Of a stretch of 64,000 nt of DNA, positions 2,412 through 40,134 are shown in pieces; position 1 is the stretch's first letter, and each line of letters begins with the position of its first letter. Both the position numbers and the translations under genes were made by a program. Under the pieces are notes generated by a model. It searched no databases. It was not told where the DNA came from and saw nothing but the letters and a program-made list of their open reading frames with translations. Source of the DNA: Actinomycetes bacterium. GTDB lineage: Bacteria > Actinomycetota > Acidimicrobiia > Acidimicrobiales > JAMCPL01. Where the stretch lies: positions 20,752-84,751 of the forward strand of contig JAKBVZ010000020.1 in the NCBI GenBank assembly GCA_021841005.1, in the 5' to 3' direction.

Positions 2412-5400
2412 TCAGTTCCCTACTCCGGAAAGGACTCCCTCGTCCTTACCATGCGTACCACCTCCGGACGGCGGTGAGTCCTCCTCCGTCCCGAGATATG
2501 ACGCCATCACTTCAGGGTTCTCTAGGACATCGGCAGTGCCGCCTTCAGCTATCACCTCACCTATATGCATACAGACAAGGCGATCAGAGATGGAAGCAAC
2601 CAGCGGAACGTCGTGTTCTATGACCAGAAATGCTGCCCCCGTCTCTTCCCTCAATCCGAGTATCAGCTCACCCAAAGCCTCTGACTCACGCTGCGCTATG
2701 CCTGAAGTCGGCTCGTCCAGCAACAGTACCTTCGGCTCATGTGCGAGGAGACAGGTGAACTCGAGAATACGGCGGGTGCCGGTTGAAAGCTCGCTGACAA
2801 AGTTGCCGCGAAAACGCTCCAAGCCCATATCCCTGAGCAAGCGCAGGGCCTTGACATATATTTCCGCCTCCGACTCCTTGGCGGCAGCAAGGCCTAGAGT
2901 ACATGCAATCGGATCTTTCACCGCCACGTGCTGCTCGCAGGCTGTCGCTATAGCATCGAGCACCGTCATGGCCGGGAAAAGCCTTGCGTCCTGGAATACC
3001 CTGCCAAGCCCTCTCGAAGCTCTCTGCGAGGGAGCTAGCGCGGTGATGTCTTCACCCGACATGAAGACCCTCCCCTGATCAGGCTTGAGAAATCCCGAAC
3101 AAACATCGAAAAGTGTCGTCTTACCCGCACCGTTGGTACCGATAATACCAACTATCTCGCCAGGACCCACCTGCACGCTCACGTCATGCAACGCAGCAAC
3201 TCCTCCATACTGCTTCGACACGCCTACAACTTCAAATGCCGGCATAGTGCTACAGTCACTGCCAGCTTTCTTCTCACTGGCTGCAATCCCACCCGAACCG
3301 ACAGCGCTCGCAATCATGCCGCCCGAAGCCATACCGCCCATCGCAATACCGGGCTGCGCGGGTGCTGCGCTGGATGTTACAGGCTGTATGCGACTCTGTG
3401 TGGGTTCCGGCTCGCGCGATTCCGTTGAATACTCACTGCTCATTGAAGCCGAGGCGAAGCCTTGCGTAGCGGTCCTGCCTACCCTGGCTTTCATGGCCGC
3501 AGAAATGAAAACCGAACGTAACAACGTGGGCTGCTGGGAAAGATCCGGCGTCGGACCGCTGAAACGTATCCTCCCTCTTTCCATGAAAACGGCCCGATTG
3601 GATATCGCCGTAGCGACATTGATCGACTGCTCCACGACCACGATGGTCACACCACTCTTGGCGAGATCAGTGACAACTTTGAGCAGGTCATTGACAACCG
3701 TAGGAGCAAGTCCCAGAGACAGCTCATCAATCATCAACAACTTCGGTTTGCAGAGCAGGGCCTGGCTGAGCGCAAGCATCTGCTGCTCCCCTCCGGAAAG
3801 CAATTCCGCCTTGTTGCGCAATCTGTTACGCAACTGGGGAAAGAGCTGAAGTACCCGGTCAGTGGCAGCTTCGACAAACGCCAACGCATCATCACTTTTG
3901 GAATGCTTCACCATCCATGCACCCATAGTGAGGTTCTCCTCTACACTTAGAGATGGAAATATACCTCTTCCTCCCAGCACAGCCACAAGTCCTGACCTCA
4001 CGCGATCAACAGCACTCTTATCCGTGATCTCTCGGCCTACAAAGGAAATCTTGCCTTCTCCAGGCTGCATCAGTCCTGCCAGAGTCCGCAAGGTGGTCGT
4101 CTTGCCGGCTCCGTTGGTACCCAGAAGGGCAAGCACCTCTCCCTGGGCAATACTGAAATTGACGTTGTAGAGTACCTGCGAACTGCCTATTGAGAGATCG
4201 ACATCACTAGCAGCCATTATCGGTACCCGACCTGTTGGAGGTCCTGCATAGGGTGCGGCCGGATGTGACTTGCCAGCATCCTGCTGGGCATCCATGGTAA
4301 CCTCCAGATCTTCCAGGGCGCCAAGGCGCAAGGCGGCAGAGCGCGCCATACTCCTATGGGCAGCCCCATCCCATCCCTGGTTACCATCATGGTCAACCAA
4401 GATACCCGCAAGGATCGCCTCCCCATCTACGTCAACCTTGGAAGCAATTGGTACAGATGGGGCAGGCGTGCCGTGCAGATCTCCGGTAATGCCCCGGCGT
4501 TTCACAAACGTAGCGAGTAAGCGGTCCCTGGCCGCAAAATAGAGCCACCCGAGCCCTTCAGGAGCTATCATCAGGATGACAAGCAACCCAACTCCCTGAG
4601 CCAGGTACTGCCATGCACCAGGCAAATGCCCCATCAGCTCGAAGAACACTGCCCCAAGCAGCCCCCCCGAAAGAGATCCAAGACCGCCCACCACAACCAC
4701 GGCAAAAATCATAACTGACTCGTTGGGATCGAAACCTGCATACCCTATGCCCTGGTTCTGAAGGACCAGCAAGGAACCAGCCAACCCAGCTATGGCCCCT
4801 GAGATGGCGAATACCATCAGCTTAGCGCGGAAGGAGCTAATGCCGTAAGCCGATGCCGCTCTGGCATTATCCCTCATGGCCACTACAGCCCTACCGGCTC
4901 TAGAATTACGAAAATTGGCAGCTAGGTATATCCCCACAACCAATACAAGAGCCGACAGCACGTACATCCAACGTTGCGAGTTCAGGTCGAAACGACCAAA
5001 AAGCACTGGCCTGGGCACGTTGGCAGGATTGAATAGCGGGAAGAAAGTGGAGGACAGCAGCCAGGTGGATGTCATCACTGCGAATGCCAGTGTAATGACT
5101 GCAAGGTACAACCCCGGAATGCGCAATGCCGGTATACCCATCACAACTGCCGCCACTGCGCCTACCAACGCTGATATCAGCATGGCAAGCAGGAGTTCGA
5201 CATGTAAATGGACGAGAAGCGCTCCCGTGGTAGCTGCGCCCACTCCCGCAATAGCGTACTGCCCAAGGCTGATCTGACCGCCCCATCCTGACAACATCAC
5301 CACCGATACGGCCAGCAAGCCATATATCGCAACAAAGGTAAACGTAGTCAACCATGTGGCGTTGAACGTCAAGGGGAGCACCACAAGCACCACCGCACCC

Positions 5401-6512
5401 AGAACGAAATATCCAATCTGGCGAGCAGCCCTGATCTCTTTCATACTTGCCAGTGCCGCCGGTATGGGGCGTATCTCGCGAAACGCTACATATCCCCCAA
5501 ATCCTGCGTCACTCGTTCGCTTCTGTTCGCGGCGCCTGAAAAGCAACGCTACAAGTATGAAGAAGAATGCAGCCACTCTTACATACGTGCTCTGGTGATA
5601 TGACCAGTAGACACCCTGATCCAGAACCCTTAACGCGATTGACCAAACCACTGCCATCGGCAATGAATCCATACCGGCCAGCACGGCTGCCGCCAGCGGA
5701 ATAAGCAATGATTCAGGGCCAGTAGCAACTCCCAGGCTTATGCCCTTTATCGGCGCAGTCAGTATGGCAGCTATCCCCGACAGTACTGTCGCCACCACCC
5801 AAACGATCATGGACAACCGCTTCACGGGTATACCGAGTAGGGTTGCACGCTCTTCGGAATCCGCGGAAGCTCGTATGGCTACGCCCGTATCGGTAGTTTG
5901 GAAGAACCAGTATAGCCCCAGCAGTGCAAGAGGGACAACAGCCAGAGCAATAAGATAATTACCGTTGAAAGTAATGGGGTTGATAGTGAACGACGCCGAG
6001 AACGGAGTAGTAAAAGTGGTCGTAGGAGAGATATTGTGAAACATATCCGGGAGTGCCACCTCGCCGGCCCCGAGTATCTGTGCTATGCCAATGGTAGCGA
6101 CCGTGAATATAAGTCTTGGAGTCTTGGAAAACCATTTGACCACGACCAAATCTATGAGCACTCCTACGACCACGGCCACCAAGAGACCTACAACAATCGC
6201 CACCCAGTAATTCCAGTGCTCGCCAACAACCGCAACAACCGCAACAGCCGCTGCCATGCCACCCATAGCACTCTGGGCAAAATTGAATATCCTAGTTGCT
6301 CGGTATATCAGTACCAGCCCCATCGCTGTCAGCGATGTGAGGCCACCCAGTACCACCCCCTGGAAAATCACTCCGGGAGGCAGGCCTGAAGGAAGCACCT
6401 GGCGCAAGATAAGATAGGCTACTGCGATCCCGAGCACCCAAACCCCGGCAAATACTGCTTTTCGCTGTCGCTGTTTCATCTGCGGAAAGATCAGAGAGGA
6501 TAGCTCCATCAC
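2412..6512 (-). CDS. Four-domain fused Liv-type ABC importer (LivH-like permease + LivM-like permease + two ATPase domains)
   Basis: Uninterrupted 1366-codon ORF. Two polytopic permease halves occupy about aa 1-330 and 340-690. Two nucleotide-binding domains follow, with Walker A GTNGAGKTTT and GTNGAGKTTL and signatures LSGGEQQ and LSTGTRR. The C-terminus ENPEVMASYLG is LivG-type. A Gly/Ala/Met-rich linker separates the ATPase domains. The ATG at 6509 is the likely true start (AAGGAG 7 nt upstream). Confidence 0.85.
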   Translation of the reverse strand: MMELSSLIFPQMKQRQRKAVFAGVWVLGIAVAYLILRQVLPSGLPPGVIFQGVVLGGLTSLTAMGLVLIYRATRIFNFAQSAMGGMAAAVAVVAVVGEHWNYWVAIVVGLLVAVVVGVLIDLVVVKWFSKTPRLIFTVATIGIAQILGAGEVALPDMFHNISPTTTFTTPFSASFTINPITFNGNYLIALAVVPLALLGLYWFFQTTDTGVAIRASADSEERATLLGIPVKRLSMIVWVVATVLSGIAAILTAPIKGISLGVATGPESLLIPLAAAVLAGMDSLPMAVVWSIALRVLDQGVYWSYHQSTYVRVAAFFFILVALLFRRREQKRTSDAGFGGYVAFREIRPIPAALASMKEIRAARQIGYFVLGAVVLVVLPLTFNATWLTTFTFVAIYGLLAVSVVMLSGWGGQISLGQYAIAGVGAATTGALLVHLHVELLLAMLISALVGAVAAVVMGIPALRIPGLYLAVITLAFAVMTSTWLLSSTFFPLFNPANVPRPVLFGRFDLNSQRWMYVLSALVLVVGIYLAANFRNSRAGRAVVAMRDNARAASAYGISSFRAKLMVFAISGAIAGLAGSLLVLQNQGIGYAGFDPNESVMIFAVVVVGGLGSLSGGLLGAVFFELMGHLPGAWQYLAQGVGLLVILMIAPEGLGWLYFAARDRLLATFVKRRGITGDLHGTPAPSVPIASKVDVDGEAILAGILVDHDGNQGWDGAAHRSMARSAALRLGALEDLEVTMDAQQDAGKSHPAAPYAGPPTGRVPIMAASDVDLSIGSSQVLYNVNFSIAQGEVLALLGTNGAGKTTTLRTLAGLMQPGEGKISFVGREITDKSAVDRVRSGLVAVLGGRGIFPSLSVEENLTMGAWMVKHSKSDDALAFVEAATDRVLQLFPQLRNRLRNKAELLSGGEQQMLALSQALLCKPKLLMIDELSLGLAPTVVNDLLKVVTDLAKSGVTIVVVEQSINVATAISNRAVFMERGRIRFSGPTPDLSQQPTLLRSVFISAAMKARVGRTATQGFASASMSSEYSTESREPEPTQSRIQPVTSSAAPAQPGIAMGGMASGGMIASAVGSGGIAASEKKAGSDCSTMPAFEVVGVSKQYGGVAALHDVSVQVGPGEIVGIIGTNGAGKTTLFDVCSGFLKPDQGRVFMSGEDITALAPSQRASRGLGRVFQDARLFPAMTVLDAIATACEQHVAVKDPIACTLGLAAAKESEAEIYVKALRLLRDMGLERFRGNFVSELSTGTRRILEFTCLLAHEPKVLLLDEPTSGIAQRESEALGELILGLREETGAAFLVIEHDVPLVASISDRLVCMHIGEVIAEGGTADVLENPEVMASYLGTEEDSPPSGGGTHGKDEGVLSGVGN

Positions 6513-22486: not shown

Positions 22487-24839
<2,353 letters not shown>

Positions 24840-24915: not shown

Positions 24916-24942
24916 TTAGCACTCTAGTCTGTCGAGTGCTAA
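24916..24942. promoter_or_regulatory. CIRCE (HrcA operator) upstream of groEL
   Basis: Perfect consensus TTAGCACTC-N9-GAGTGCTAA, 100 nt upstream of the groEL start codon. Confidence 0.9.
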
Positions 24943-24949
24943 TAGCTAA

Positions 24950-25048
24950 TCACTTTCAGGATGATCGTGCAAGTACGCCTTCCGCTGCGGCCACTATGCC
25001 GCAGCCCGTGCATTACGGCTGTCACTTTCAGGATGATCGTGCAAGTAC
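24950..25048. repeat. MIRU-like element, locus A: 27-bp direct repeat flanking a 45-bp hairpin core (72-bp period)
   Basis: TCACTTTCAGGATGATCGTGCAAGTAC occurs at 24950-24976 and at 25022-25048. The core contains CTGCGGCCACTATGCCGCAG (7-bp stem, 6-nt loop). Confidence 0.9.
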
Positions 25049-25355
25049 ACTGTTCCGCGCCTCAATACTCAATATATGTGCACTGCGCAATGCATCGACC
25101 CGTTTTCATATCGACACGTTGCCACCACCACCAAATTGACATGAAATTGCAATGCAACGGTAAAGAGTTTGTCATATTTGTGGGTTATAGTATGTTTGGT
25201 AGCAAGTAGGCGCTCATCGGGCAACCTGAACGGCCGTTCGAATCTGAAAGGGCGTTCGTGCGTCTATTGCCAAGGATGCGATTCATATACGCAACCGCTA
25301 CAAGTGGCGTGCACTCTCCGGGAGGAGTGCCTTGACCGGACAGGAGAGTGAAACC

Positions 25356-28300
25356 ATGTCATTTGGAAAGAGAGGCCGCAGATTAAGGGTATTGTCGGGT
25401 ATTTTGCCGGGCGTGCTACCGGTAGCAATTGTGGCAGCCGTATTGCTGCCTCTCCTGGCCACAGCAGCAAATGCAGCTACAGTTCCCCAGGTGGTAAACG
25501 TTTCAGCAAGCGTGGCTGGTGGTTCTGGCTCAGCTGGAGGATGGGAGGTATCCAACGCCGCTCAACTGCCCGTCAGCGCTCTTACCGCAATATCCTGCCC
25601 TGCCACTGGTGATTGCGTGGCTGTGGGCCAGGGATTGTCCGGCAATACGATATCCGCCGTGACCTCGAATGGCGGGCTGGATTGGACAGTGCAGCAACTG
25701 CCTAGTGAGGTAGGCTCGCTTACCGGGATATCCTGCCCGACTACGCAAGCGTGCTTTGCTGTGGGGCAGGCATCCGAACCTTACAACAGCTTCACCCCAG
25801 GTGGAATCGTCGTATCCACCAGTAATGGTGGCTCCAGCTGGACTATCCAGGACATCCCCGGAGGAGTATCGTCGCTGACCGGCATCTCGTGTGCAGCTTC
25901 ATCCGATTGCTGGGTAGTGGGAAGCAACACTGCGTCTGTACCGGTAATGCTCAGTACCACAAACGGTGGTACCACTTGGACCGCTACTACACCCCCGGCT
26001 CCCGCCGGTAATCTTGATGTAATATCCTGTCCTGCTACAACTCACTGCGTAGCCACCGGTGCCAGTGGCGCAGTAGTAGTCACATCTGACGGGGGGAAGA
26101 CGTGGACAGTCCCACCCGTACCAAACGACACCACCAATCTTGATTCCGTATCATGCGCGGATGTCATGTTCTGCATGACCGTGAATATCCTTCCTTACAG
26201 CGGCAACTTCCGGGTCCGGAACGAGTCATCCACAGGTTTAGTAAGCTCATTTCAAACCTCCGCAGGCTCGGCTACAGCCCAGTCTGTATGGGTCACCACC
26301 GACGGAGGAACCACCTGGACAGTAGAGCAGGTGCCATCCAATATTATTCAACTGGCAGGTGTCTCATGCGCGCCTGCGTCCTCCAGCACCATCACAGGAA
26401 CAGCCTCTACCGTCTACACACCTTGTACTGCAATAGGTACGGAAGTCACCTCCGGCACACCCGATAATCCAATTACAGAAAACACGGTCGTACTCGCGTC
26501 CACTGACGGCGGATCGACCTGGAATACGGAGAACACTTCACCATCGACGGTTAATCTATTGGCGATATCGTGCAACGATATCACTGATTGCGTAGCCGTA
26601 GGTGCTGAGTCTCCCAACACCTCAACGACCTCACTGCCCACCCTGCTTGGAGGGTCCGAAACCAGTATAGCGTTGTCCACCACAGACGGAGGCAACGCAT
26701 GGAATCTTACGAACGTCCCTACTGCCAGCCAGGTACTCCTGAATGTGAACTGTGCCAGCACATCTGACTGCGTGGCGGTCGGCTCCACCACGGGAACCGG
26801 TGGAAGCACTGCAGCTCTCGCACTTTCCACCTCCAACGGGGGACAGACTTGGAGGCCGGAAAATCCACCTGCCAATGCGCCATTGCTGGATGTCTCCTGC
26901 CCGACTACGACTCAGTGTACAGCGGTGGGCGGTAATCCTATAGGGGGAATCTTCGGCCCCGGACCTGCAACCATTGTAAGCACTTCCAATGGAGGATCTT
27001 CGTGGACATCCGGGACTATACCGAACAATTTGTTGAGCATCCTCGGGGTCTCTTGCGCTTCTGTCAATTTCTGCGTATCCGTGGGTGCAGGGTTCCCTCC
27101 CAATGCCAAATCCGGGTATTCCTTGTCCAGCATAGTAGGTGTCATCCTTGTCAGCACCGATGGTGGCACCTCATGGAAAGAGCCGGCTTCATATCCAGGC
27201 GATGTGCTTTCCTCCGTGTCATGTCCTACAGTGTCCACGTGCTACGCATCAGGCAGTTCCATTCTCGGATCTGAGGGATTCAATGGGTTACCGGGAATGG
27301 TGGTGAAGACCATCAACGGTGGAAGCACGTGGTCGGTACTGCAGCCTGCCGGCAAGGACACCCCCGAACTGAACGGCATTGCATGTTCCTCTGCCACCCA
27401 GTGCGTCGTATCCGGAGGATCGTTACTGAACGGCCTTGAGGGCGGGAGCGGTGTAAGTGGCGGCTTGGGGTTCACCACCACAAACGGTGGAGCAAGCTGG
27501 AATAAATCCGCCTTCCCTTCAGGATCGCAGCCAGTCATGCGAATTTCCTGCGCAAATACTCAGGACTGCTGGGCAGCCAGTGGTGAATTATTCTCACCTT
27601 CTTCCGGAGGCATTCTGGCCAGCACCGATGGAGGAGTACAGTGGACCGAGCAGGCACTGCCCGTACAGCCTATGTCCATGTTCGGGGTATCGTGTCCCTC
27701 GACCACCGGCTGCTACGCTGCCGGATTGACGCCAAGCCAAAGCATTCTGCTCTCGACAACGACCGGAGGCTGGCTGGTGCCTGCTATTAGCTCTGTCAGC
27801 CCTAGCGACGGTTTCTCCTACGGTGGAACTACAGTGACCCTGTCAGGTACCGGATTCGTTCAAGGTCACACGGTGGTCAATTTCGGCACTGCGCCAAGTC
27901 CATCCGTAGATGTCCAGTCATCTTCTGAGCTGACCGCGGTGGCACCACCGGGAAGCGGAACTGTCAATGTCACGGTTCAAACTCCTGGCGGGACGACCAC
28001 CCCTACCAGTCATACCACCTTCAGTTACCAGCCTGCCGGCAGCTACACCTCTAGGGCAGCTTCCCCTTTCACGCCGGTCACTCCTTACCGTATAGCGGAC
28101 ACAAGACTGGGCTCCGGTGAGCCCTACGCGGGCCAGACCCTTGACACTGGCAGCGTGCTGAGCGTCAAGATCGGAGGTACCCAGCCTCAAGGGAGTGGCA
28201 ACGGTATACCCATCAGCGCCACAGCGGCAGTGATCAACGTAACCGCCGTCAACGCCGCTTCTCCAGGCTACCTGACCGTATGGCCAGCCGGGTATTCCAA

Positions 28301-29333
28301 GAGCACCTCCTCCGCGGTCAACTATTCCGGTACTGCGCCGGTCGCCAATCTGGTGACCGTTCCAATTGGACTGAACGGCCAGGTAAATGTATATGCCTCC
28401 AGCGGGCCGGTGGACGTGGTAATGGACGCGGAAGGCTGGTACGGCCCTGCAGGTACCAGCGGCTTTACCGCGATTAGTCCTTATCGTATAGCGGATACAA
28501 GGCCAGACTCCGGTGAGCCTTACGCGGGACAGACCCTTGCTCCCCATCGTGTGCTCACCATAAAGACCACTGGAACCGGCGCTACGCCCGCCAACGGCGG
28601 TGCCGGCGTTCCGATCACTGCCACTGCCGTAGACTTGAACGTAACCGCCGTCAACGCCGCTTCTCCAGGCTACCTGACCGTATGGCCAGCCGGCCAGGCA
28701 CGCCCGTTGGCATCCACAGTCAACTTCTCAGCACCTCCTATAATCTCGCCGGTGATACTGGATGGAAACCCGGCAACCTCATCGGGTCCCTTGCCTGTAT
28801 CGAACTCGGTTGCAGTAGCAGTGTCCTCCTCTGGTGAAATAAGCATTTATAACGGTTCGCAGGGAAGTATCAACGTAGTGGTGGACGTACAAGGCTGGTT
28901 CTCCACCCCAGACAGTACGAGCGCCTCTGGAAGTTCTCCTTTAAAGTTCACGCCAGTCAATCCCTACCGTATAGCGGACACGAGACCGGGTTCCGATGAG
29001 CCCTACGCGGGACAGACTCTTGCTCCCCATGGTGTGCTCACCATAAAAGCAGGTGGGACAGCCCCTCTGGGCAATGCCAACGGCGGTACCGGCATTCCGA
29101 TCACTGCCACCGCTGTAGTACTGAACGTTACCGTTGCCACCTCCGATGCATCAGGCTACCTGACCGTATGGCCGGCAGGCCAGGCACGCCCGTTGGCATC
29201 CAATACCAACTATGGAAAGGACACGATAATTGCAAGCCAAGTGGTCGTCCCTCTCGGATCAGGAGACAGCATCTCGATTTACAACTCAGCCGGCTACACC
29301 AACGTAGTGGTGGACGTGGAAGGCTGGTTCTGA
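25356..29333 (+). CDS. Large secreted protein: 14 BNR/Ycf48-like propeller units + IPT/TIG domain + three copies of an uncharacterised PYRIADTR domain
   Basis: Signal peptide MSFGKRGRRLRVLSGILPGVLPVAIVAAVLLPLLATAANA. There are 14 units, each pairing [IV]SC-x5-C-x-[AV]xG with S-x-[DN]-G-G-x-x-W. An IPT-like segment follows (SVSPSDGFSYGGTTVTLSGTGF). Then come three 128-161 aa repeats. I moved the start to the ATG at 25356, after GGAGAG. Confidence 0.8.
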   Translation: MSFGKRGRRLRVLSGILPGVLPVAIVAAVLLPLLATAANAATVPQVVNVSASVAGGSGSAGGWEVSNAAQLPVSALTAISCPATGDCVAVGQGLSGNTISAVTSNGGLDWTVQQLPSEVGSLTGISCPTTQACFAVGQASEPYNSFTPGGIVVSTSNGGSSWTIQDIPGGVSSLTGISCAASSDCWVVGSNTASVPVMLSTTNGGTTWTATTPPAPAGNLDVISCPATTHCVATGASGAVVVTSDGGKTWTVPPVPNDTTNLDSVSCADVMFCMTVNILPYSGNFRVRNESSTGLVSSFQTSAGSATAQSVWVTTDGGTTWTVEQVPSNIIQLAGVSCAPASSSTITGTASTVYTPCTAIGTEVTSGTPDNPITENTVVLASTDGGSTWNTENTSPSTVNLLAISCNDITDCVAVGAESPNTSTTSLPTLLGGSETSIALSTTDGGNAWNLTNVPTASQVLLNVNCASTSDCVAVGSTTGTGGSTAALALSTSNGGQTWRPENPPANAPLLDVSCPTTTQCTAVGGNPIGGIFGPGPATIVSTSNGGSSWTSGTIPNNLLSILGVSCASVNFCVSVGAGFPPNAKSGYSLSSIVGVILVSTDGGTSWKEPASYPGDVLSSVSCPTVSTCYASGSSILGSEGFNGLPGMVVKTINGGSTWSVLQPAGKDTPELNGIACSSATQCVVSGGSLLNGLEGGSGVSGGLGFTTTNGGASWNKSAFPSGSQPVMRISCANTQDCWAASGELFSPSSGGILASTDGGVQWTEQALPVQPMSMFGVSCPSTTGCYAAGLTPSQSILLSTTTGGWLVPAISSVSPSDGFSYGGTTVTLSGTGFVQGHTVVNFGTAPSPSVDVQSSSELTAVAPPGSGTVNVTVQTPGGTTTPTSHTTFSYQPAGSYTSRAASPFTPVTPYRIADTRLGSGEPYAGQTLDTGSVLSVKIGGTQPQGSGNGIPISATAAVINVTAVNAASPGYLTVWPAGYSKSTSSAVNYSGTAPVANLVTVPIGLNGQVNVYASSGPVDVVMDAEGWYGPAGTSGFTAISPYRIADTRPDSGEPYAGQTLAPHRVLTIKTTGTGATPANGGAGVPITATAVDLNVTAVNAASPGYLTVWPAGQARPLASTVNFSAPPIISPVILDGNPATSSGPLPVSNSVAVAVSSSGEISIYNGSQGSINVVVDVQGWFSTPDSTSASGSSPLKFTPVNPYRIADTRPGSDEPYAGQTLAPHGVLTIKAGGTAPLGNANGGTGIPITATAVVLNVTVATSDASGYLTVWPAGQARPLASNTNYGKDTIIASQVVVPLGSGDSISIYNSAGYTNVVVDVEGWF

Positions 29334-29335
29334 GA

Positions 29336-29611
29336 TCAGCCGCCGGCGACAGCAGGAACGACCGAGAGGGTCTGCCCATCCGTGACAGGTGTGTCCAGGC
29401 CATCGAGAAAACGGACATCCTCATCGGCTAGGAACACATTGACAAACCTCCGCAGACTGCCGGACTCGTCAAACAATCTCTCACCGATACCTGGGTACTT
29501 GGCATCAAGTTCCCTCAGCGTGTCTCCGACAGTCGCTCCACTGATACTGACCTCACCCAGTCCATCGGTGAGTTCCCGTAGCTGCGATGGTATCCTTACT
29601 GTAACGCTCAT
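29336..29611 (-). CDS. MoaD/ThiS-family sulfur-carrier protein (MetO/CysO-like), C-terminal GG
   Basis: 91-aa beta-grasp-like protein ending in AVAGG. It lies downstream of the threonine-synthase-like gene. Start is the ATG at 29611, preceded by GAGGAG (ORF track extends to 29665 through the repeat). Confidence 0.75.
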   Translation of the reverse strand: MSVTVRIPSQLRELTDGLGEVSISGATVGDTLRELDAKYPGIGERLFDESGSLRRFVNVFLADEDVRFLDGLDTPVTDGQTLSVVPAVAGG

Positions 29612-29764
29612 CTTCTGTGCTCCTCTTCTAGGTCTGCTGCGGCCACTATGCCGCAACTCGTGCACCGTGTGTTGCTCATCTTCTGTGCTCCTCTTCTAGG
29701 TCTGCTGCGGCCACTATGCCGCAACTCGTGCACCGTGTGTCGCTCATCTTCTGTGCTCCTCTTC
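29606..29764. repeat. MIRU-like element, locus D: 2.3 tandem copies of a 68-bp unit between metM-like and metO-like genes
   Basis: The 23-bp junction GCTCATCTTCTGTGCTCCTCTTC is present at 29606, 29674 and 29742. It is the complement of SD plus ATGAGC. The copies are separated by two 45-bp cores containing CTGCGGCCACTATGCCGCAA. Minus-strand mini-ORFs lie at 29676..29747 and 29608..29679. Confidence 0.95.
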
Positions 29765-29806
29765 CCGTGAGTCATACTACCAGTGCCTGTGTGTGGAGAC
29801 CATCCG

Positions 29807-31051
29807 TCATACACCGGAAATGCGGCCGGCCATTGCCTCGGCAAAGGCATCCATCCTGGCTGCGATGGTAACTGTTGGGTGGACAGAGTCGGTTAGAGCC
29901 TCGACGGTCTTGAGACCGTGACCGGTCACGAAGATGACCACCTTCTCCTCCGGCTTGATCACCCCTTCCGACACCAGCTTGGCGAGTGAAGCCACGGTCA
30001 CTCCACCTGCCGTTTCAGCAAATATACCTTCCGTTCTCGCCAGTAGCTTGATACCTTCGATTATCTCGCCGTCCGTCACGCTGGCAAACGAGCCTCCCGT
30101 GGACCGGACCGTATCGAGAGCGTACCAGCCATCAGCAGGGTTCCCTATGGCGAGCGACTTAGCGATTGTATCGGGTTTTACAGGTCTTATGACATCCTTG
30201 CCTGCCCGGAACGCATCGGCTACCGGAGAACATCCAAGCGCCTGTGCGCCTGATATCCGAACCGCTGGTTCCTCGGCAAGCAGCCCCACGGTATACAGCT
30301 CCTTGAACCCCTTTGCGATCTTCGTCAGCTGGCTGCCGGAAGCCACAGGAACCACCACGTGATCGGGAGTGGTCCATCCCATCTGCTCCGCCACTTCGAA
30401 CGCCAGCGTCTTGGAACCTTCCGCGTAGTAGGGACGCAGGTTCACATTCACAAAGGCCCAATCGTCGTGCTCACTGGTCAACTCCGCACACAACCTGTTC
30501 ACGTCATCATAAGTCCCTTCCACCGCAACCAGATGTCCGCCATATACCGCAGTCGTAATCACCTTTGCGACCTCCAGGTCATGCGGTATGAACACCAGTG
30601 ACTCCACCCCTCCTCGGGCCGCGTGCGCCGCTACGGCATTGGCGAGATTCCCTGTAGATGCGCAAGCCACCACTTTGAAACCCAGCTCACGAGCTTTGGC
30701 GAGTGAGACAGATACCACCCTGTCCTTAAAAGAACCGGTAGGGTTGGCCGTATCGTTCTTTACCCAGAGCGATTGCAATCCCAACTCGGAGCCGAGCCTA
30801 CCTGCCCGCACAAGAGGAGTGAAACCGGTTCCCATGGACAGATCGTCATTTCCCAGCACCGGAAGGAGTAGTCCGTATCTCCAGATACTACGCGGGCCTG
30901 CCTCTATGGACTCCCGGCTGATCCCCTCCTTAATACAATCGTAGTCGTAGTCCACTTCGAGCGGCCCGAAACAAAAGTCGCATACATGCAGCGCCTCCGC
31001 GGGATAGAGCCGTCCGCACTCCCTGCACTTCAGACCATTTACGCAATTCAC
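29807..31051 (-). CDS. Threonine-synthase-family PLP enzyme with N-terminal Cys4 zinc ribbon (MetM-like candidate homocysteine synthase)
   Basis: PLP lysine motif TGSFKDR. N-terminal CRECG...CDFC. Start is GTG, 5 nt after GAGGAGG. A SAM riboswitch lies upstream and a sulfur-carrier gene downstream. Confidence 0.8.
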   Translation of the reverse strand: MNCVNGLKCRECGRLYPAEALHVCDFCFGPLEVDYDYDCIKEGISRESIEAGPRSIWRYGLLLPVLGNDDLSMGTGFTPLVRAGRLGSELGLQSLWVKNDTANPTGSFKDRVVSVSLAKARELGFKVVACASTGNLANAVAAHAARGGVESLVFIPHDLEVAKVITTAVYGGHLVAVEGTYDDVNRLCAELTSEHDDWAFVNVNLRPYYAEGSKTLAFEVAEQMGWTTPDHVVVPVASGSQLTKIAKGFKELYTVGLLAEEPAVRISGAQALGCSPVADAFRAGKDVIRPVKPDTIAKSLAIGNPADGWYALDTVRSTGGSFASVTDGEIIEGIKLLARTEGIFAETAGGVTVASLAKLVSEGVIKPEEKVVIFVTGHGLKTVEALTDSVHPTVTIAARMDAFAEAMAGRISGV

Positions 31052-33552: not shown

Positions 33553-36500
33553 CTAAAGATGCTCCGCCGCATCACCCGCCAGGTTCCCACCCGCCAGGTT
33601 CCCGGAAACTTCCCCGCCATCTTCATCTTCATCCCTGTGCCTTCCAAGCAGCTTGCCCACCAGGCGGGCACCGTCATCAATATAGGAATAGAACACCGGG
33701 ACCACCAGCAACGAAAGTGCTGTCGAGGAGAGCAAGCCGCCGATCAGCACGGTGCCAATAGGCATTCGCTCGGAAGCCCCTACGCCGGTAAGCAAGGCAA
33801 GCGGCAGCATGGCACCGACCATAGTGGCGGTGGTCATCAAGATCGGCCTTATCCTGGTGGCCCCAGACTCCACGATCGCATCATTACGAGCATAGCCACG
33901 CTTGCGGAGCGTCTTGGTGTAATCCACCAGTAGAATCGAGTTCTTTGCCACCAAGCCCATCAGCATGATCATCGCGAGCAATGCAAATATCGACATGGAA
34001 AGCCCTGATGCCCAGAGCGCGAGCAAGGCTCCTACTGTGGCAAGGGGCACGGCGAACATCACTGAAAGTGGATCCAGGAAGGACTCGTAAAGGGCAGCAA
34101 GAAGCATGTACACGAGCAGTACTGACAATAGAAGTGCTCCTATCAGCGGTCCGAAGGCTCTTGACTGAGCCAGAGCCTCTCCCCCCACCTGCAGAGCATA
34201 TCCGGTGGGCAACCCAACGGTCTTGGCGGCGCTCATAAGAGCCGCCTCAGCAGGACCCGAGTTCCCTGAAGTGCTCGATGCGGAGACGGATACTGCATAT
34301 TCCCGATTGATCTGTACTATGCTGCCGGGCCCGGGCGCAACGCTCAAGTCGGCAACAGTGGACAGCGGCACCGTTCCGTGCCCTGTGGGTATTGGTATTG
34401 ACGAAAGCTCGGCCGGAGTGAACTTCACTCCTCCGTCCAACTGCATGACTACCGGTTCTGAAGGCGCTGTCGACGAAGTGATGAGCGGTGGCACCTTCAC
34501 TCCACCGAGAGCGGAAGCAATAGTGGAACCGATGGTGGAAGTGGTCACACCAAGGTAAGCCGCCTCAGCATGGTTTACATTGATGGCCAACTCTGGTGTA
34601 GGAGCAGGTATGTTGTTGGATACCTGAGAGACAGCTGGACTCTTTTCCGCTGCGTTGGTGATCGACGTCGCTATGCTCTCCAACTCGTTGAGGTCAGGAC
34701 CGACTATGGACACCGTGGCGGCACGAGCACCACCAGCAACAAACGGATTGCTTACATGGGCATGAGCGACCAGGCCAGGGTATTTTCGCTCCATTGCAAC
34801 GACTCGTTTCTCGTATGTCTTAATCGATGGCCGGCTGCCGCGGGGACCAAGGTCTAGGGTAATCTGTCCCAAATTGTGCCCCGTGCCTGATCCTGCACTA
34901 TATCCTGCCGAGACAAATACATTCGTTACGCCCTGCAAACCCTGCAACCTCTTGGAAAATGCCGCGAGGGTGGTCTGATCGGTCGAGAGCGGAGTACCTG
35001 GCGGTAGGGTGGCCTTCACCGTTACTACCCCGTTGTCCTCAGGGGGGACAAAAGTTGTGGGCACCACGCCGGAAGTAACGATGAGAACACTTGCAACCGC
35101 CGACACGATTCCCACGCTGAGCACTATAATCCGATGTCTGAGGGCCCACCTCACCACGTGCCGGTACCACTCACGCATCCAGTCGAACCCGGCATCGAAG
35201 CGCATACCTATTCTCGTGGACAACGTACCACTCTTCTGCTCCTTCCCAAGCCAGCGAGAGGCAAGCATGGGGGTAAGCGTGAACGACACCAGGAGGGAAA
35301 AGAGGGTAGCCGCTACAATGGTAAGACCGAACTCCCTGAAGAGCTGACCCACATTGCCCGAAACAAACGCCACCGGGGCATACACAACCACATCGGTCAA
35401 GGTAATAGCTACGGCCGCGGCCCCTATCTCCATCCGACCATCGACCGCAGCATCTGCAGGCGCCTTGCCCATGGCGCGATGACGATTGATATTCTCAAGT
35501 ACTACGATAGAATCATCAACCAGTATTCCAATGAGCAGTGACAGGGCCATCAGTGAAATAAGATCCAGGCTGAAATGGAGGAAATACATTACAAGGAAAG
35601 TGGATATCAGCGATACGGGTATGGCAATCATGACGATTGCCGTATTGGCCAACCTGTGCAGGAACACCAGCAGTATCAGTGCAGCTATGAGTATGCCAAG
35701 GAACAGATCCATCTCCACGTTGGACAGGGCACCTCTCACGTAGTTGGTCACATCGCCTATAATCGTGCTTGTAACCCCCGGAGGAAGTTTGCTCTGCAGC
35801 CCTGCCAGCGCTGATCGTATTGCCGTATCCACTTGCAAGGAGTTAGCGGTGGACGATGCGCTCACGACAAGACCGACCGCCGGACTACCATTCAAGGTGG
35901 CGACCGACTGCTTCTGGGCAAGACCCTGCGTGACACTGGCCACGTTGCCGAGAAGTACATTCCCGCCCGAGCGGGAAGCCACTGGTATGGAGGCAAGCTG
36001 CGCCACCGAGTTGTACCCTCCATGGACTCGAGCAAGTAGCTCGTGTTCTCCAACCACGGTTACGCCACCGGTGACTGATGTATTCTGCGCATGTAGAGCA
36101 CCTGCCACCTCGCTCATCGATACGCCATAAGCGCTGAGCGCAGTGCTCGAGACGTTGACGGTCACCACTTGAGGCTGCCCGCCGACAACAGTAACCTGGG
36201 AAACCCCTGGAATCTCCTGCAATGAAGGCGCCACCAGAGTGGATGCCAGGTTGAACAGCTGCGAGGACGCCAGCGGGCCCGAGAGGGCAATGTTCATCAT
36301 GGGCAACGCGTTTGGATTGGCTTTCAGTATCGAGGGTGGGCTTGCTGTGGATGGAAGTGACCTCGCCAACTTCTGCAGGGCAAGTGACACGCTTGCCGCC
36401 TGCTGATCAATATTGGTCCCTCCGGTAAACTCCATGGAAACCGATGAACGCCCTGGTGAAGAAGTTCCCACCATCGTAACGATACCGGACTCTGAAGAAA

Positions 36501-36783
36501 GTGCCTTCTCTATAGGGTCGGTAATGGCACTGGCCACTGTTGCCGCATTGGTTCCTGGATCTGATACCGATACGCGCAAGTAAGGAAAATTGACGTTCGG
36601 CAGGCGCCTGACCGGCAATCTTGTAAATGCCACCAAGCCAAAGAGCACGAAGAAGCCAAGCACCATGATGATGGTGACCGGTCGCCGCACCGACAGCGAG
36701 GTCAGATTAAAACGCGTATGCGTAACGGCGTTTCTCTCCTGTCCCTTCTTCCCGCTGGTCTCCCCGCCGGTCTGGACTCCCAC
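33553..36783 (-). CDS. RND efflux transporter, AcrB/HAE-type
   Basis: 1076-aa, 12-TM protein with two large loops. AcrB-like N-terminus (SVRRPVTIIMV) and conserved TM4 region GILVDDSIVVLENI. Confidence 0.9.
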   Translation of the reverse strand: MGVQTGGETSGKKGQERNAVTHTRFNLTSLSVRRPVTIIMVLGFFVLFGLVAFTRLPVRRLPNVNFPYLRVSVSDPGTNAATVASAITDPIEKALSSESGIVTMVGTSSPGRSSVSMEFTGGTNIDQQAASVSLALQKLARSLPSTASPPSILKANPNALPMMNIALSGPLASSQLFNLASTLVAPSLQEIPGVSQVTVVGGQPQVVTVNVSSTALSAYGVSMSEVAGALHAQNTSVTGGVTVVGEHELLARVHGGYNSVAQLASIPVASRSGGNVLLGNVASVTQGLAQKQSVATLNGSPAVGLVVSASSTANSLQVDTAIRSALAGLQSKLPPGVTSTIIGDVTNYVRGALSNVEMDLFLGILIAALILLVFLHRLANTAIVMIAIPVSLISTFLVMYFLHFSLDLISLMALSLLIGILVDDSIVVLENINRHRAMGKAPADAAVDGRMEIGAAAVAITLTDVVVYAPVAFVSGNVGQLFREFGLTIVAATLFSLLVSFTLTPMLASRWLGKEQKSGTLSTRIGMRFDAGFDWMREWYRHVVRWALRHRIIVLSVGIVSAVASVLIVTSGVVPTTFVPPEDNGVVTVKATLPPGTPLSTDQTTLAAFSKRLQGLQGVTNVFVSAGYSAGSGTGHNLGQITLDLGPRGSRPSIKTYEKRVVAMERKYPGLVAHAHVSNPFVAGGARAATVSIVGPDLNELESIATSITNAAEKSPAVSQVSNNIPAPTPELAINVNHAEAAYLGVTTSTIGSTIASALGGVKVPPLITSSTAPSEPVVMQLDGGVKFTPAELSSIPIPTGHGTVPLSTVADLSVAPGPGSIVQINREYAVSVSASSTSGNSGPAEAALMSAAKTVGLPTGYALQVGGEALAQSRAFGPLIGALLLSVLLVYMLLAALYESFLDPLSVMFAVPLATVGALLALWASGLSMSIFALLAMIMLMGLVAKNSILLVDYTKTLRKRGYARNDAIVESGATRIRPILMTTATMVGAMLPLALLTGVGASERMPIGTVLIGGLLSSTALSLLVVPVFYSYIDDGARLVGKLLGRHRDEDEDGGEVSGNLAGGNLAGDAAEHL

Positions 36784-36792
36784 GTGACTCCG

Positions 36793-38406
36793 CTAACCCT
36801 TCTTCCCGCCAAATCCTCCGAAGCCGCCTGCTCCTCCACCACCGGCTCCTCCACCACCACCCTTGGTGCCCTTTTTCGAGGTTGGAGCAGGAACGGTCAG
36901 CGTTCCCGACAGATTGGCGAGCCCGGCCACCGCCGTACCGGTCACGGTGGATGGTACGGTAATGCTGCCGCTGATCTTCACGTGTCCACCGTTCGCAAGG
37001 TAAGTCTGCCCTACGGCGACCACTTTCGTGCCCGCCGGGATACCCGTAACCATCGTGGTGGTACCATCCGATATTCCTGCGGTTACATTGACAAGCGATA
37101 CAGTGTGGTCGGAATGGATCTCGAACACCTGCGATATGCCATTGATGTTCACTATAGCCTCTGACGGCACGAGGACGGCGGGTGAATACTTTTTGGTGAT
37201 CACATTTACCACAGCGGATTCACCGCTCAGCAACCAGCTTGGCTGCGCCCCCGGTGTAAGCGTCACCGTAAAGGTCAACGAGCTTGGATTGCTGGTCGGC
37301 GATATCGCCTGGACCGTAACTGGCAACGGAGTAGGTGCACCTGGTGTCAAAGCACTGGCCTGCTCGCCGGCATGGATAAGAGCGAGATCCTGCTGTGCCA
37401 GCGGAGCTTGTAGTGTCAGTGCCGTAGTCTCTACAGTTGCCAGGGTGGTTCCCGATCCTACCTGTTGCCCGGTAATGGCGGGAACGGAAACCACAACCCC
37501 GGCAAATGGCGCCCTTACTGTCTCTTGGGCGATCTCTGCCTGAACCAGTTGTACCTGGCTCTGAGCTTGTATCAATGCAGTAGTGGAAGCAGGGCTTTCT
37601 GCCTGCACCAGCTGGTACTGAGCTGCACGCATAGCAGCTTGGGCTGCCGACAGGTTGGCCTGATCCAGAAGGACATCCTGCTGTGCCGTACCAAGGCCGG
37701 ACTGGTCGCTGGTGGCACTGTCACTGTCCGATGATTTCTCAGAAGCGTCCACCTGAGCTGTCTGCTCGGCTTGCTCGGCGTTGTCCAGGCTTACTTGGGC
37801 TTGATCCAGTGCCGCCTGAGCCTTTGCTACCCCTGCTTGTGCAGTAAGGATTGCCGCCTGCTGATTGGATGAATTAGTGGTCTGGGCATTTTGAAGGATG
37901 CCCTGAGCAGCCGCCAGTTGCGCCGCCAGCGTGGGACTGGTAACCGTAGCAACCGGCTGGCCGGCCTGCACCAGCTGACCTGCCGTCACGTCGACCGCTG
38001 TAACGGTACCGGAATTCGTAGCCACCAAAGTCAGCGTGGCCCGTGGCAACACCGTACCTGAAAGGGTCAACTGGTACGTAGCGGTGCCGGAGACAGACGA
38101 CGCCGCTATCACGGAGCTCACACCACTAGCCTTGTGATGCCCCTTCTTGCCCTTCTTGCCGTGTCCCCCATGATGGCCATGATGCCCGCCGGCAAGGATA
38201 ATGCCACCGCTGGAACCGGGCGAGCCGGCAAATGCGCTGGAACTCATACCGAGACCGGCAACAGTCATTGCAAGCGCGACGGCGAGCAGGAGCTTGATCC
38301 ACCTCGACTTATGCACATAGGTGGAAGCCGCCTTGGATACGGTGATGCAGATACCTCTGGTAATACGAGTTATCCTTGCGGTAAGTCCGGAAATGATCGC
38401 CTTCAC
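36793..38406 (-). CDS. RND/efflux periplasmic adaptor (HlyD/MFP family) with His-rich N-terminal and Gly-rich C-terminal tails
   Basis: Coiled-coil, Ala/Gln-rich hairpin region plus beta-barrel segments. N-terminal GGHHGHHGGHGKKGKKGHHK. C-terminal GGGGGAGGGGAGGFGGFGGKKG. Abuts the RND gene. Confidence 0.8.
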   Translation of the reverse strand: MKAIISGLTARITRITRGICITVSKAASTYVHKSRWIKLLLAVALAMTVAGLGMSSSAFAGSPGSSGGIILAGGHHGHHGGHGKKGKKGHHKASGVSSVIAASSVSGTATYQLTLSGTVLPRATLTLVATNSGTVTAVDVTAGQLVQAGQPVATVTSPTLAAQLAAAQGILQNAQTTNSSNQQAAILTAQAGVAKAQAALDQAQVSLDNAEQAEQTAQVDASEKSSDSDSATSDQSGLGTAQQDVLLDQANLSAAQAAMRAAQYQLVQAESPASTTALIQAQSQVQLVQAEIAQETVRAPFAGVVVSVPAITGQQVGSGTTLATVETTALTLQAPLAQQDLALIHAGEQASALTPGAPTPLPVTVQAISPTSNPSSLTFTVTLTPGAQPSWLLSGESAVVNVITKKYSPAVLVPSEAIVNINGISQVFEIHSDHTVSLVNVTAGISDGTTTMVTGIPAGTKVVAVGQTYLANGGHVKISGSITVPSTVTGTAVAGLANLSGTLTVPAPTSKKGTKGGGGGAGGGGAGGFGGFGGKKG

Positions 38407-38463
38407 ATATTCAATTCAACACCCCCAACATGAAAAACAGATTAAGAATGGTTAAAGACTTCC

Positions 38464-40134
38464 CTAATCTTTACGGTTGGCGATCGCAGGAAGCTTCACG
38501 ATGACCTGAGTGTAACTTGTCTTGTCATAATGGATATCGTTTTCCGTGCCCGCTCCGACACTGGCTTCAGTGGTACCCTCGGTTGTAGCTGGAGTTGCGG
38601 CATCCGTGATGGCACTCGTAGTGTCTCTCGTAACATCTTGTGTCACACCATGTCTTGCTCTATGTCTCACGCTATGTCTCATATGCTCGGCGCTGCCTGT
38701 TGCAGCACTACCTCCAGTAGCTGTCGTGATGCTTGACGTGGTAGCCGGCGTGGCGCTTTGAATGGTAACGGTGCCACCGTGCGCCTCGACGATTTGCCGT
38801 GTAATCGCCAGCCCCAAACCGAAACCTGGCACCTGCCGCGATCCCTGGCCACGATAGAATCGGTCGAATACATGCTCGAGATCTCTCGCCGGGATGCCTG
38901 GTCCGCTGTCACGAATTGACAGCTCCCCGTCGTGCAATGTCACATCCACCGCCTTGCCAGGTGGACTCCATTTGGCGGCATTGTCGAGGATGTTGGAGAT
39001 GGCTCGCTCCAATCTGGACCTCGATCCACTTACTGAAAACGGTTCGAGACGACTCTCCACTATAATGTCCGGATAGGCCAATTCTACGCGACTGATACAC
39101 GTCATCACAATCTCGTCAAGGTCTACCGCCTCATCAGACCCAGGCATGGCGACACCTTCATCTTCACGAGCAAGATCCACAAGGTCGCCAACCAGCAGGG
39201 CCAAGCTGTCAAACTGCTCCCGGACGTCAGCCACAAGCTGAGCCCGCTCGACGGCCGGTAGGGACTCGTCCCCTGCCAGTACCTCTACATTTGTCCTCAA
39301 CCCCGCAAGAGGGGTCCTCAGCTCATGGGATGCATCGGCCACAAGCTGACGCTGCGAACGCTGGGTGGCTTCCAGGACGCCAAGCATAGAATTGAGGGTA
39401 TGGGCAAGACGCCCGATCTCGTCCAGCTTGCCCACTGCTATGCGCTCATGGAGATCGCCTGTGGCCTTCACCGCCTCAACTGCCCTGGTAAGCCGTCTGA
39501 TCGGCCTGAGAGCGGCCCCGGTGACCAGTAGCCCGAGCAGGAGAGCAAAGAGGATGCCAGCCGAGCTCACTATTACAAGCACAAGAAGGAGACGGCTCAA
39601 CTCGTCACGAATCGATCCCACCGGCTTGATCACCTGGATGGCTTGGCCGGCAATGTACGGAGCCACCAGCATTCTCACGGGAACCCCGGAAATGGTAAGA
39701 TCCTCGAATGTACCTCTTGCGCTTCCCTCACCAGCTGCCGCGTGGCGGGCTAATGCCGTCACAGGCAGGTGGACGCTGGCATCCTGCGCTGCAATGACCA
39801 CTCCCTTGCTGTCTACTACCTGCACTAGCGTAGGCAACTCGGAAAGGCGGGCCAGTGTAGCTTTGCGAGGCTTGACGACCCTGGTTATACCGTGCTCGAA
39901 TACCAGTCCTTCTTCCCGTCGAAGTGCCGCATCCACTCTATGATACAGATCATGACGTACCACGATATAGACTGCAGTGGATGAAAGCAGGACGCCGGCT
40001 GCAACAGCCGCTGCCACCGCAAGCACCACCTTGGCCTTCCAGCTCAAAGAATGTCGAACCGACACGTCCCACATCCCTGCCAAAGCCAGCCCTGACTTCC
40101 ACCTGCCTGTACCGCCATCATCGTCGTTCTCCAT
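38464..40134 (-). CDS. Sensor histidine kinase (HAMP-HisKA-HATPase) with low-complexity insertion near the C-terminus
   Basis: H-box ADASHELRTPL, N-box LDNAAKW, G1 DSGPGI, G2 GFGLGLAI. An insert of about 85 aa, rich in Thr/Ala/His/Arg, precedes the final strand (VIVKLP). Confidence 0.9.
   Translation of the reverse strand: MENDDDGGTGRWKSGLALAGMWDVSVRHSLSWKAKVVLAVAAAVAAGVLLSSTAVYIVVRHDLYHRVDAALRREEGLVFEHGITRVVKPRKATLARLSELPTLVQVVDSKGVVIAAQDASVHLPVTALARHAAAGEGSARGTFEDLTISGVPVRMLVAPYIAGQAIQVIKPVGSIRDELSRLLLVLVIVSSAGILFALLLGLLVTGAALRPIRRLTRAVEAVKATGDLHERIAVGKLDEIGRLAHTLNSMLGVLEATQRSQRQLVADASHELRTPLAGLRTNVEVLAGDESLPAVERAQLVADVREQFDSLALLVGDLVDLAREDEGVAMPGSDEAVDLDEIVMTCISRVELAYPDIIVESRLEPFSVSGSRSRLERAISNILDNAAKWSPPGKAVDVTLHDGELSIRDSGPGIPARDLEHVFDRFYRGQGSRQVPGFGLGLAITRQIVEAHGGTVTIQSATPATTSSITTATGGSAATGSAEHMRHSVRHRARHGVTQDVTRDTTSAITDAATPATTEGTTEASVGAGTENDIHYDKTSYTQVIVKLPAIANRKD

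Follow-up and report, generated by a model that had tools for sequence, protein, structure and literature searches.

Three tandem CWB2 motifs anchor proteins of Clostridioides difficile to the polymer PSII (PMC4973711), and a secondary cell wall polymer is bound by trimers of SLH domains (PMC6081394). Two other described groups are built from Asp-box propellers. Ycf48/HCF136 (PF14870) is a single propeller of ~330 amino acids (aa) that assembles photosystem II, and the GH74 xyloglucanases (for example 5jwz, 6p2m, and 2cn3) carry two tandem 7-bladed propellers per chain. We analyzed a gene whose product resembles each of these systems in part. It lies in a stretch of 64,000 nucleotides (nt) from the Actinomycetes bacterium assembly GCA_021841005.1 (contig JAKBVZ010000020.1, positions 20,752 to 84,751 of the forward strand; hereafter the window), where it occupies positions 25356..29333 (+). 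Two propellers and an IPT/TIG domain are predicted in the encoded protein, followed by a C-terminal repeat of ~130 aa, named DTR here, in three copies. We read it as a Sec-exported, non-enzymatic surface protein, in which three DTR domains (DTR x3) would act as a non-covalent glycan anchor for a disulfide-stapled double propeller, with the IPT domain as spacer. The probability of this reading was put at about 0.5.

By sequence, Ycf48 is the nearest relative of the propeller part, and the two have a common four-strand Asp-box blade layout. Ycf48 has no Cys pair in its blades, whereas the protein studied here has two propellers, 14 Cys pairs, and extra domains. GH74 enzymes likewise have two tandem propellers, but the Cys pairs, the IPT domain, and the DTR modules belong to the protein studied here, and it has no conserved catalytic Asp pair. 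DTR x3 is similar to CWB2 x3 (PF04122, the Cwp proteins of C. difficile) and SLH x3 in occurring as three tandem copies, in a terminal position, on many surface proteins and wall hydrolases, and in many paralogues. It differs from them in that it has no sequence relationship to either, is predicted to form all-beta jelly-rolls of ~125 aa, and is found in other taxa; its binding is putative. The folds of SLH and CWB2 differ from the jelly-roll.

Anatomy of the protein and its predicted double propeller

The open frame spans 25332..29333 (+). A GGAGAG motif lies 7 nt 5' of the ATG at 25356; the public record (P0001) uses the TTG at 25332 as start, which gives 1333 aa. ATG 25356 was accepted as the start because the alignment with an 85%-identical orthologue (L003) begins exactly at MSFG. 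The coding sequence then comprises 1325 aa plus the stop codon. An identical protein is encoded on contig DAHYFJ010000005.1 of the metagenome-assembled genome (MAG) GCA_027390655.1, and the close relatives are MAGs labelled Actinomycetota. The parts of the gene are as follows.

25356..29333, forward strand: whole coding sequence, translated into 1325 aa; start in the public record at 25332 (TTG)
25356..25475, forward strand: putative Sec-type signal peptide, aa 1-40, read from the sequence
25581..26735, forward strand: predicted propeller 1, Cys-pair/Asp-box units 1-7, aa 76-460 (motifs, AlphaFold2, Foldseek)
26736..27779, forward strand: predicted propeller 2, Cys-pair/Asp-box units 8-14, aa 461-808 (motifs, AlphaFold2, Foldseek); last Asp-box degenerate
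27780..28028, forward strand: IPT/TIG Ig-like spacer domain, aa 809-891 (Pfam PF01833, E 1.2e-12)
28065..28451, forward strand: predicted DTR jelly-roll, copy 1, aa 904-1032 (repeat motifs, profile, AlphaFold2)
28461..28910, forward strand: predicted DTR jelly-roll, copy 2, aa 1036-1185 (repeat motifs, profile, AlphaFold2), with a ~25-aa low-confidence insertion
28944..29330, forward strand: predicted DTR jelly-roll, copy 3, aa 1197-1325 (repeat motifs, profile, AlphaFold2), reaching the C-terminus

A preliminary description of this DNA had proposed much of this layout: a frame of 1325 aa, 14 Cys-pair units arranged as two 7-bladed propellers with a probable disulfide in each blade, an IPT/TIG-like domain, and a triple C-terminal domain for which it knew no function. 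The analyses reported here confirmed the frame, the Cys-pair units, and the IPT/TIG domain and supported the double propeller, in which the disulfides are likely.

In the first 40 residues, the n-region is basic (KRGRRLR), the hydrophobic core is long, and a cleavage-like site lies between ANA and A. At the other end (...VVVDVEGWF), inspection of the sequence found neither an LPXTG/sortase signal nor a membrane anchor. The IPT/TIG match was full length, with profile positions 1-84 of 84 matched by aa 809-891. Read from its sequence, the protein is probably a large exported surface protein consisting of two stapled propellers, a spacer, and three DTR domains.

The protein has 28 Cys residues, all of them within 14 consecutive pairs (13 CX5C and one CX18C, 338/357). 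It also has 13 Asp-boxes of the form [ST]x[DN]GGxxW; unit 14 has a degenerate box (STTTGGW) instead. The units are 34-70 aa long. Chance levels were obtained from 10,000 shuffles of the protein. CX5C occurred 0.57 times on average and 5 times at most in the shuffled protein, versus 13 observed, and the maximum for Asp-boxes was 1, versus 13 observed.

In the AlphaFold2 model, DSSP assigned four strands to a unit, with the Asp-box positioned between strands 3 and 4 like that of a BNR blade. The two Cys residues are located at the end of strand 1 and the start of strand 2, so that they close the first hairpin, which joins the two innermost strands. In 56 homologues (~30-38% identical), both Cys residues of a pair were kept at 765 of 771 aligned positions and a single Cys at 3. 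The pair comprises the most conserved residues of the propeller family. Because the pairs are near-invariant and flank a hairpin, and because exported actinobacterial proteins commonly carry disulfides, one disulfide staple per blade is likely.

When the family profile was aligned to PDB sequences, Ycf48 had no Cys at the positions of the blade-hairpin pair. The pair, which the preliminary description did not know from ordinary BNR or Ycf48 repeats, is family-wide and not unique to this protein. Among 337 relatives (E ≤ 1e-5), many had 12-14 CX5C pairs and some had 24-27. Judged from these sequences, the Cys-pair blade is the mark of a large metagenomic family, often with 14 units and sometimes with about 26-27. 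The family-profile search of PDB sequences found no solved relative with Cys-pair blades, and the literature searched contained nothing on Cys-pair BNR blades. In exported proteins of actinobacteria, the blade would offer a clean and testable example of a propeller repeat stabilised by disulfides.

A different repeat was observed in isolate FK_Sedi_A_Bin.93 (L015 2-4813, L011 2-4810, and L018). There, a 41-aa repeat, GGGLTSVSCPSASFCAAVDxxGNALTYNGTSWS, is present about 19-25 times in paralogous DTR x3 proteins; it keeps the CX5C hairpin but has YNGTSW in place of the Asp-box. Several such genes lie side by side. This repeat looks like a second class of Cys-pair repeat.

Residues 41-900 were modeled using AlphaFold2 with 57 homologues. 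The predicted local distance difference test score (pLDDT) was 84.9 and the predicted TM-score (pTM) was 0.76. Low confidence was confined to long insertions in units 5-7 of propeller 1, and the border between the two propellers is approximate. In Pfam, PSII_BNR (PF14870) matched in three stretches with 56.9 bits (cut-off 27), and Sortilin-Vps10 (PF15902) matched short Asp-box stretches with 40.9 bits (cut-off 33). A Foldseek search of the PDB returned GH74 for the top 22 chains (E 1e-20 to 3e-15, ~850-900 aligned columns), with a TM-score (TMt) of ~0.48, a root-mean-square deviation (rmsd) of 9-10 Å, and an identity of 12-14%. Single Ycf48 propellers matched the model at TMt 0.65-0.67, and Aip1, which has two 7-bladed propellers, matched at TMt 0.51. 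The matches to GH74, Ycf48, and Aip1 supported a model of two tandem 7-bladed propellers of the Ycf48/BNR type in a GH74-like architecture. The modest TM-score with GH74 suggested that the mutual orientation of the two propellers differs from that in GH74.

Two other identities were rejected. A sortilin-like 10-bladed propeller was ruled out by a fold match of only TM ~0.2. Ycf48 proper, the photosystem II assembly factor (NCBIfam equivalog NF010237), was ruled out by a score of 51.5 bits against a cut-off of 326, and its architecture, a lipoprotein with a single propeller, differs too.

As GH74 chains were the best structural matches (E 1e-20), the double propeller might be an enzyme, either a divergent GH74-like glycoside hydrolase or one of another kind, with DTR x3 as its carbohydrate-binding module (CBM). 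NCBIfam also gave a weak match to the F510_1955 glycosylhydrolase family (42.8 bits, cut-off 175). Catalytic residues were assessed indirectly, by column conservation, and by this measure no D, E, K, R, or H column was conserved at ≥ 75% in the 57 homologues or at ≥ 80% in the 17 closest, except one Asp-box Asp. In addition, a search of PDB sequences with the family profile yielded Ycf48 (E 2.8e-11) and sialidases, with GH74 missing at E ≤ 0.01, and the inter-propeller orientation indicated by the TMt and rmsd is unlike that of GH74. By these tests, membership in GH74 was rejected for the lack of a conserved catalytic pair together with the lack of a sequence match, and we consider an enzymatic propeller of any kind very improbable.

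The conserved columns of the propeller family are framework residues (C, G, W, P, A, and T). A conserved frame with surface loops free to vary would be the pattern of a ligand-binding scaffold. The propellers were read as such a scaffold, and not as a GH74 enzyme, because no catalytic acidic residues are conserved. The propeller part adds a new member to a known superfamily and is set apart by a Cys staple found throughout its family.

The DTR domain and its triple arrangement

Each of the three DTR repeats opens with PYRIADTR (aa 910, 1042, and 1203) and closes with GW[YF] (aa 1027, 1180, and 1323). The repeats are 54-65% identical to one another. The conserved residues of the domain are P-x-R-x-x-D-T-R, N-V-T, P-x-G, P-x-x-S-x-x-N, N, and D-x-x-G.

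Pfam had no model matching the region, whether in this protein or among 54 members sampled at random. NCBIfam and PHROGs gave no family match, no relative was found among PDB sequences at E ≤ 10, and 50,697 phage records searched by tblastn contained none. Phage lysins and receptor-binding proteins thus lend DTR no support. The C-terminal domain of the G7C tailspike (Pfam) was rejected as the identity of DTR, its match being sub-threshold (E 0.0033; 17.6 bits, with the cut-off at 26). A limited literature search found no paper describing the domain, and one candidate S-layer preprint also lacked the relevant terms. Neither the libraries nor the limited literature searched appears to describe DTR. 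The earlier remark that the domain has no known function holds because no library model and no PDB sequence relative was found.

A single-domain profile was used to search 1.84 billion representatives clustered at 50% identity. It retrieved 38,022 proteins at E ≤ 1e-3, of which 12,766 were at E ≤ 1e-30. At least 38,000 cluster representatives (50% identity) therefore carry a domain for which Pfam and NCBIfam have no model. The phyletic distribution, which the preliminary description had recommended as a check, was examined by a genome scan with a 7-sequence single-domain alignment as the query. DTR was found in Actinomycetota, Dormibacterota, and Acidobacteriota; because the scan depends on the motif GYLTVWPAG, this list is biased and incomplete. 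Kitasatospora kazusensis JCM 14560 (L079) is one of the carriers. The domain is found at the termini of extracellular enzymes in lineages that abound in soil, peat, and mine drainage and are mostly uncultured.

Three copies were present in 182 of the 185 proteins found with the triple query, and the 3 exceptions were cut at the protein end or were partial records. In the single-motif genome scan, all 82 complete open reading frames (ORFs) had three copies; ones and twos were seen only at locus ends or frame breaks. Among the top 136 proteins of the single-domain profile search, 120 had 3 copies, 6 had 6, and one had 9. A few of the 136 scored 4-5 copies, with a domain-sized gap or a weak extra match, and look like proteins with 6 copies, some of them degenerate. 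In 110 of 120 proteins the module lay at an end, C-terminally in 94 and immediately behind the signal peptide in 16; in the other 10 it was internal. A secretion signal like the C-terminal domain of the type IX secretion system was ruled out, as DTR is also found after the signal peptide or internally and occurs in monoderm as well as diderm phyla.

The proteins with 6 or 9 copies (P0271-P0274, P0295, and P0322) consist of two or three triple modules, which are either contiguous or split by other sequence.

DTR copies were 50% alike within a protein versus 41-44% between proteins. In the gene studied here, the DNA of copies 2 and 3 was 80-94% identical in blocks. The greater likeness within proteins and the similar DNA blocks indicated that the copies are homogenised while their number stays fixed.

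The triple module (425 aa) was modeled using AlphaFold2 with 48 sequences. The model had a pLDDT of 91.5 and a pTM of 0.90, was all-beta with 8 strands per domain, and had linkers of 3-9 residues between domains. The pTM of 0.90 suggested that the three domains are held in a fixed mutual arrangement. Fold matches by Foldseek were weak and all to jelly-rolls, namely the CBM22 tandem, Vip3/Cry domains, the STIV triple jelly-roll, and PM2 P2. The Bd2133 fibre tip matched the module with a probability of 1.0 and a TMt of 0.54. In a viral structure library, the best multi-domain match was a BclA-C-terminal-domain protein (TMq 0.46), and C1q-like phage proteins were found also. Because the predicted unit is rigid and the copy number clusters at 3, 6, and 9, a closed three-fold assembly was favored over an open rod. 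On this model, DTR x3 would be a single-chain pseudo-trimer. The eight-stranded jelly-roll predicted for DTR is shared by CBM22 and by the trimers of C1q/TNF/BclA-type C-terminal domains and viral jelly-rolls, and the three DTR rolls seem to form one unit. In contrast to the C1q/TNF/BclA type, the DTR rolls are in one polypeptide; the matches have low TM-scores, sequence similarity is absent, and the symmetry of the DTR rolls is putative.

The rigidity of the predicted unit and the homogeneity of copies within a protein, together with frequent attachment to secreted peptidases, would also suit a structural or oligomerisation unit with no specific ligand. DTR x3 could then be a folding nucleus like a single-chain C1q/TNF trimer, a lattice contact like that of S-layers, or, as with the PPC/P-domains of proteases, a cleavable aid to secretion or folding. 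However, the invariant polar residues of each domain (R, D, R, N, T, S, N, N, and D) are more than packing needs. The module directly follows the signal peptide in about 13% of proteins, unlike a C-terminal pro-domain, and its partners reach well beyond proteases. A purely structural role was thus considered unlikely.

Partners of DTR and the anchoring reading

The peptidoglycan enzymes fused to DTR, confirmed by Pfam, were CHAP, glucosaminidase, GH25, M23, and YkuD with PG_binding_1; Amidase_2 and SpoIID were further partners among the sampled members. Protease-type partners were C39-like and CAP, both likewise confirmed, and S8, A4, M6, sedolisin, and S41, and other enzyme or toxin-like partners were GH43 and RHS. 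Binding or stalk partners were TIG (13 of the 54 sampled members), fn3, PKD, He_PIG, and RCC1/FG-GAP/PQQ propellers. DTR was also found with the 'choice-of-anchor' Z and P domains of NCBIfam, a family name given to domains that occur with alternative anchoring signals. In P0062, a homologous Cys-pair double propeller, CWB2 x3 occupies the slot of DTR x3. Genomes had several DTR paralogues, some of them in tandem arrays (L063, L071, L074, and L082), and isolate FK_Sedi_A_Bin.93 had at least 6 loci.

The tandem arrays are from Acidobacteriaceae MAGs. They consist of 3-4 DTR x3 genes placed head to tail, with a sedolisin pro-domain, InlB B-repeats, and He_PIG as partners.

Part of this range, including GH43, NPCBM, and many proteases, would agree with DTR x3 being a substrate-directed CBM or lectin head for an environmental polysaccharide or other cells. 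The protein would then be released, or would be an adhesin with DTR at its tip. The weak jelly-roll matches to CBM22, to CBM-like Vip3/Cry toxin domains, and to fibre-tip or C1q-like receptor-binding heads point the same way, as does the abundance of DTR in diderm Acidobacteriota. CBMs, however, are rarely so strongly fixed at three copies. The fusions to enzymes remodelling the cell's own wall (YkuD L,D-transpeptidase, SpoIID, and Amidase_2) point instead to the wall of the producer, as does the finding that DTR takes the place of CWB2 x3 among homologous propeller proteins. A substrate-directed module is possible, and we regard it as doubtful.

In the anchoring reading, the protein would be exported by the Sec pathway, after which the propellers would fold and the blade hairpins would be oxidised. 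The IPT/TIG domain would space the propellers from DTR x3. The DTR pseudo-trimer would bind a glycan polymer of the envelope or matrix non-covalently, and the protein would be retained at the cell surface, where the variable faces of the propellers could bind a ligand. In thousands of other proteins, DTR x3 would hold hydrolases and proteases at the surface likewise.

No Pfam match to SLH (PF00395) or CWB2 (PF04122) was found on the DTR region of the protein or of the 54 sampled members. By analogy, DTR x3 may nevertheless work in a manner resembling the three-repeat anchors. In one comparison, the protein was 85% identical to the L003 orthologue, versus 99% for the PALP enzyme and 95% for ThiS, so that it diverges faster than its neighbours. 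This fits an exposed, fast-evolving surface protein.

Several findings weigh against anchoring. DTR is common in diderm Acidobacteriota, on contigs of up to 2.9 Mb. Because the peptidoglycan of these diderms is unreachable from outside, the ligand cannot be peptidoglycan or a wall polymer everywhere, and this taxonomic spread is the main weakness of the reading. Many of the partners are secreted proteases, which would fit substrate targeting or a folding aid equally well, and one partner set already contains PG_binding_1. No lysin in the 50,697 phage records and no PHROG family has DTR. When the triple module was compared with the PDB, the Foldseek TM-scores were ≤ 0.21. For DTR proteins in general, export is suggested only by a crude hydrophobicity heuristic, which found a hydrophobic N-terminal window in 158 of 218. 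The glycan-binding role itself is predicted by analogy.

A wider proposal is that DTR x3 is a third three-repeat envelope anchor beside SLH and CWB2, in which a single-chain, C1q/TNF-like pseudo-trimer would fasten extracellular proteins such as wall hydrolases, proteases, and adhesins, tens of thousands of them, to a glycan on the surface of Actinomycetota, Dormibacterota, and Acidobacteriota, and that the propeller is a new scaffold displaying variable binding surfaces. We put this forward tentatively, as less probable than the anchoring of this one protein. An envelope-anchoring role of DTR, if real, would account for the display of wall hydrolases, proteases, and adhesins by these organisms. 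It would also allow tens of thousands of proteins now listed as 'hypothetical' to be annotated better and provide a handle for surface display or labelling of uncultured Acidimicrobiia, Dormibacteria, and Acidobacteria.

Neighbouring genes and other features of the window

The genes around the propeller gene are groEL, a chlorite-dismutase-like gene, ThiS, a PALP enzyme, and OtsA (GT20 trehalose-phosphate synthase). groEL is divergent from it (23190..24815, -), as the preliminary description had noted. That description had also seen no obvious partner genes, and the annotations agree, as none of these neighbours suggests a functional partner. Its statement that the gene is the largest in the window was incorrect. 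The ORF at 2412..6512 (-), with 1366 aa from its putative start, is larger; it encodes a fused Liv-type branched-chain amino-acid transporter, in which two BPD_transp_2 permease stretches share one polypeptide with two ABC ATPase domains.

A perfect CIRCE operator, TTAGCACTC-N9-GAGTGCTAA, is located at 24916-24942, about 100 nt upstream of groEL; none was expected by chance. The operator implies that groEL is under HrcA control, and an involvement of the propeller gene seems unlikely. The 540-nt intergenic region between groEL and the propeller gene also contains two identical 27-nt direct repeats, TCACTTTCAGGATGATCGTGCAAGTAC, at 24950-24976 and 25022-25048, 72 nt apart. They could be the binding site of a regulator.

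At 33553-40134 (-), a full-length AcrB-type RND pump (E 2e-237), an HlyD-type membrane-fusion protein, and a HAMP histidine kinase are encoded in a row. No outer-membrane factor was found among the genes scanned, and the host is presumed to be monoderm.

Immediately downstream of the propeller gene and convergent with it, a ThiS-like sulfur-carrier gene lies beside the PALP enzyme gene at 29336-31051 (-), in a layout like that of CysO-CysM. Two public gene calls differ in the start of ThiS, one giving 91 aa plus a 55-aa ORF and the other 123 aa. In the orthologous locus of isolate FK_Sedi_A_Bin.79 (L003 4388-6777), about 2.4 kb of extra DNA, missing from the window, separates the propeller gene from ThiS.

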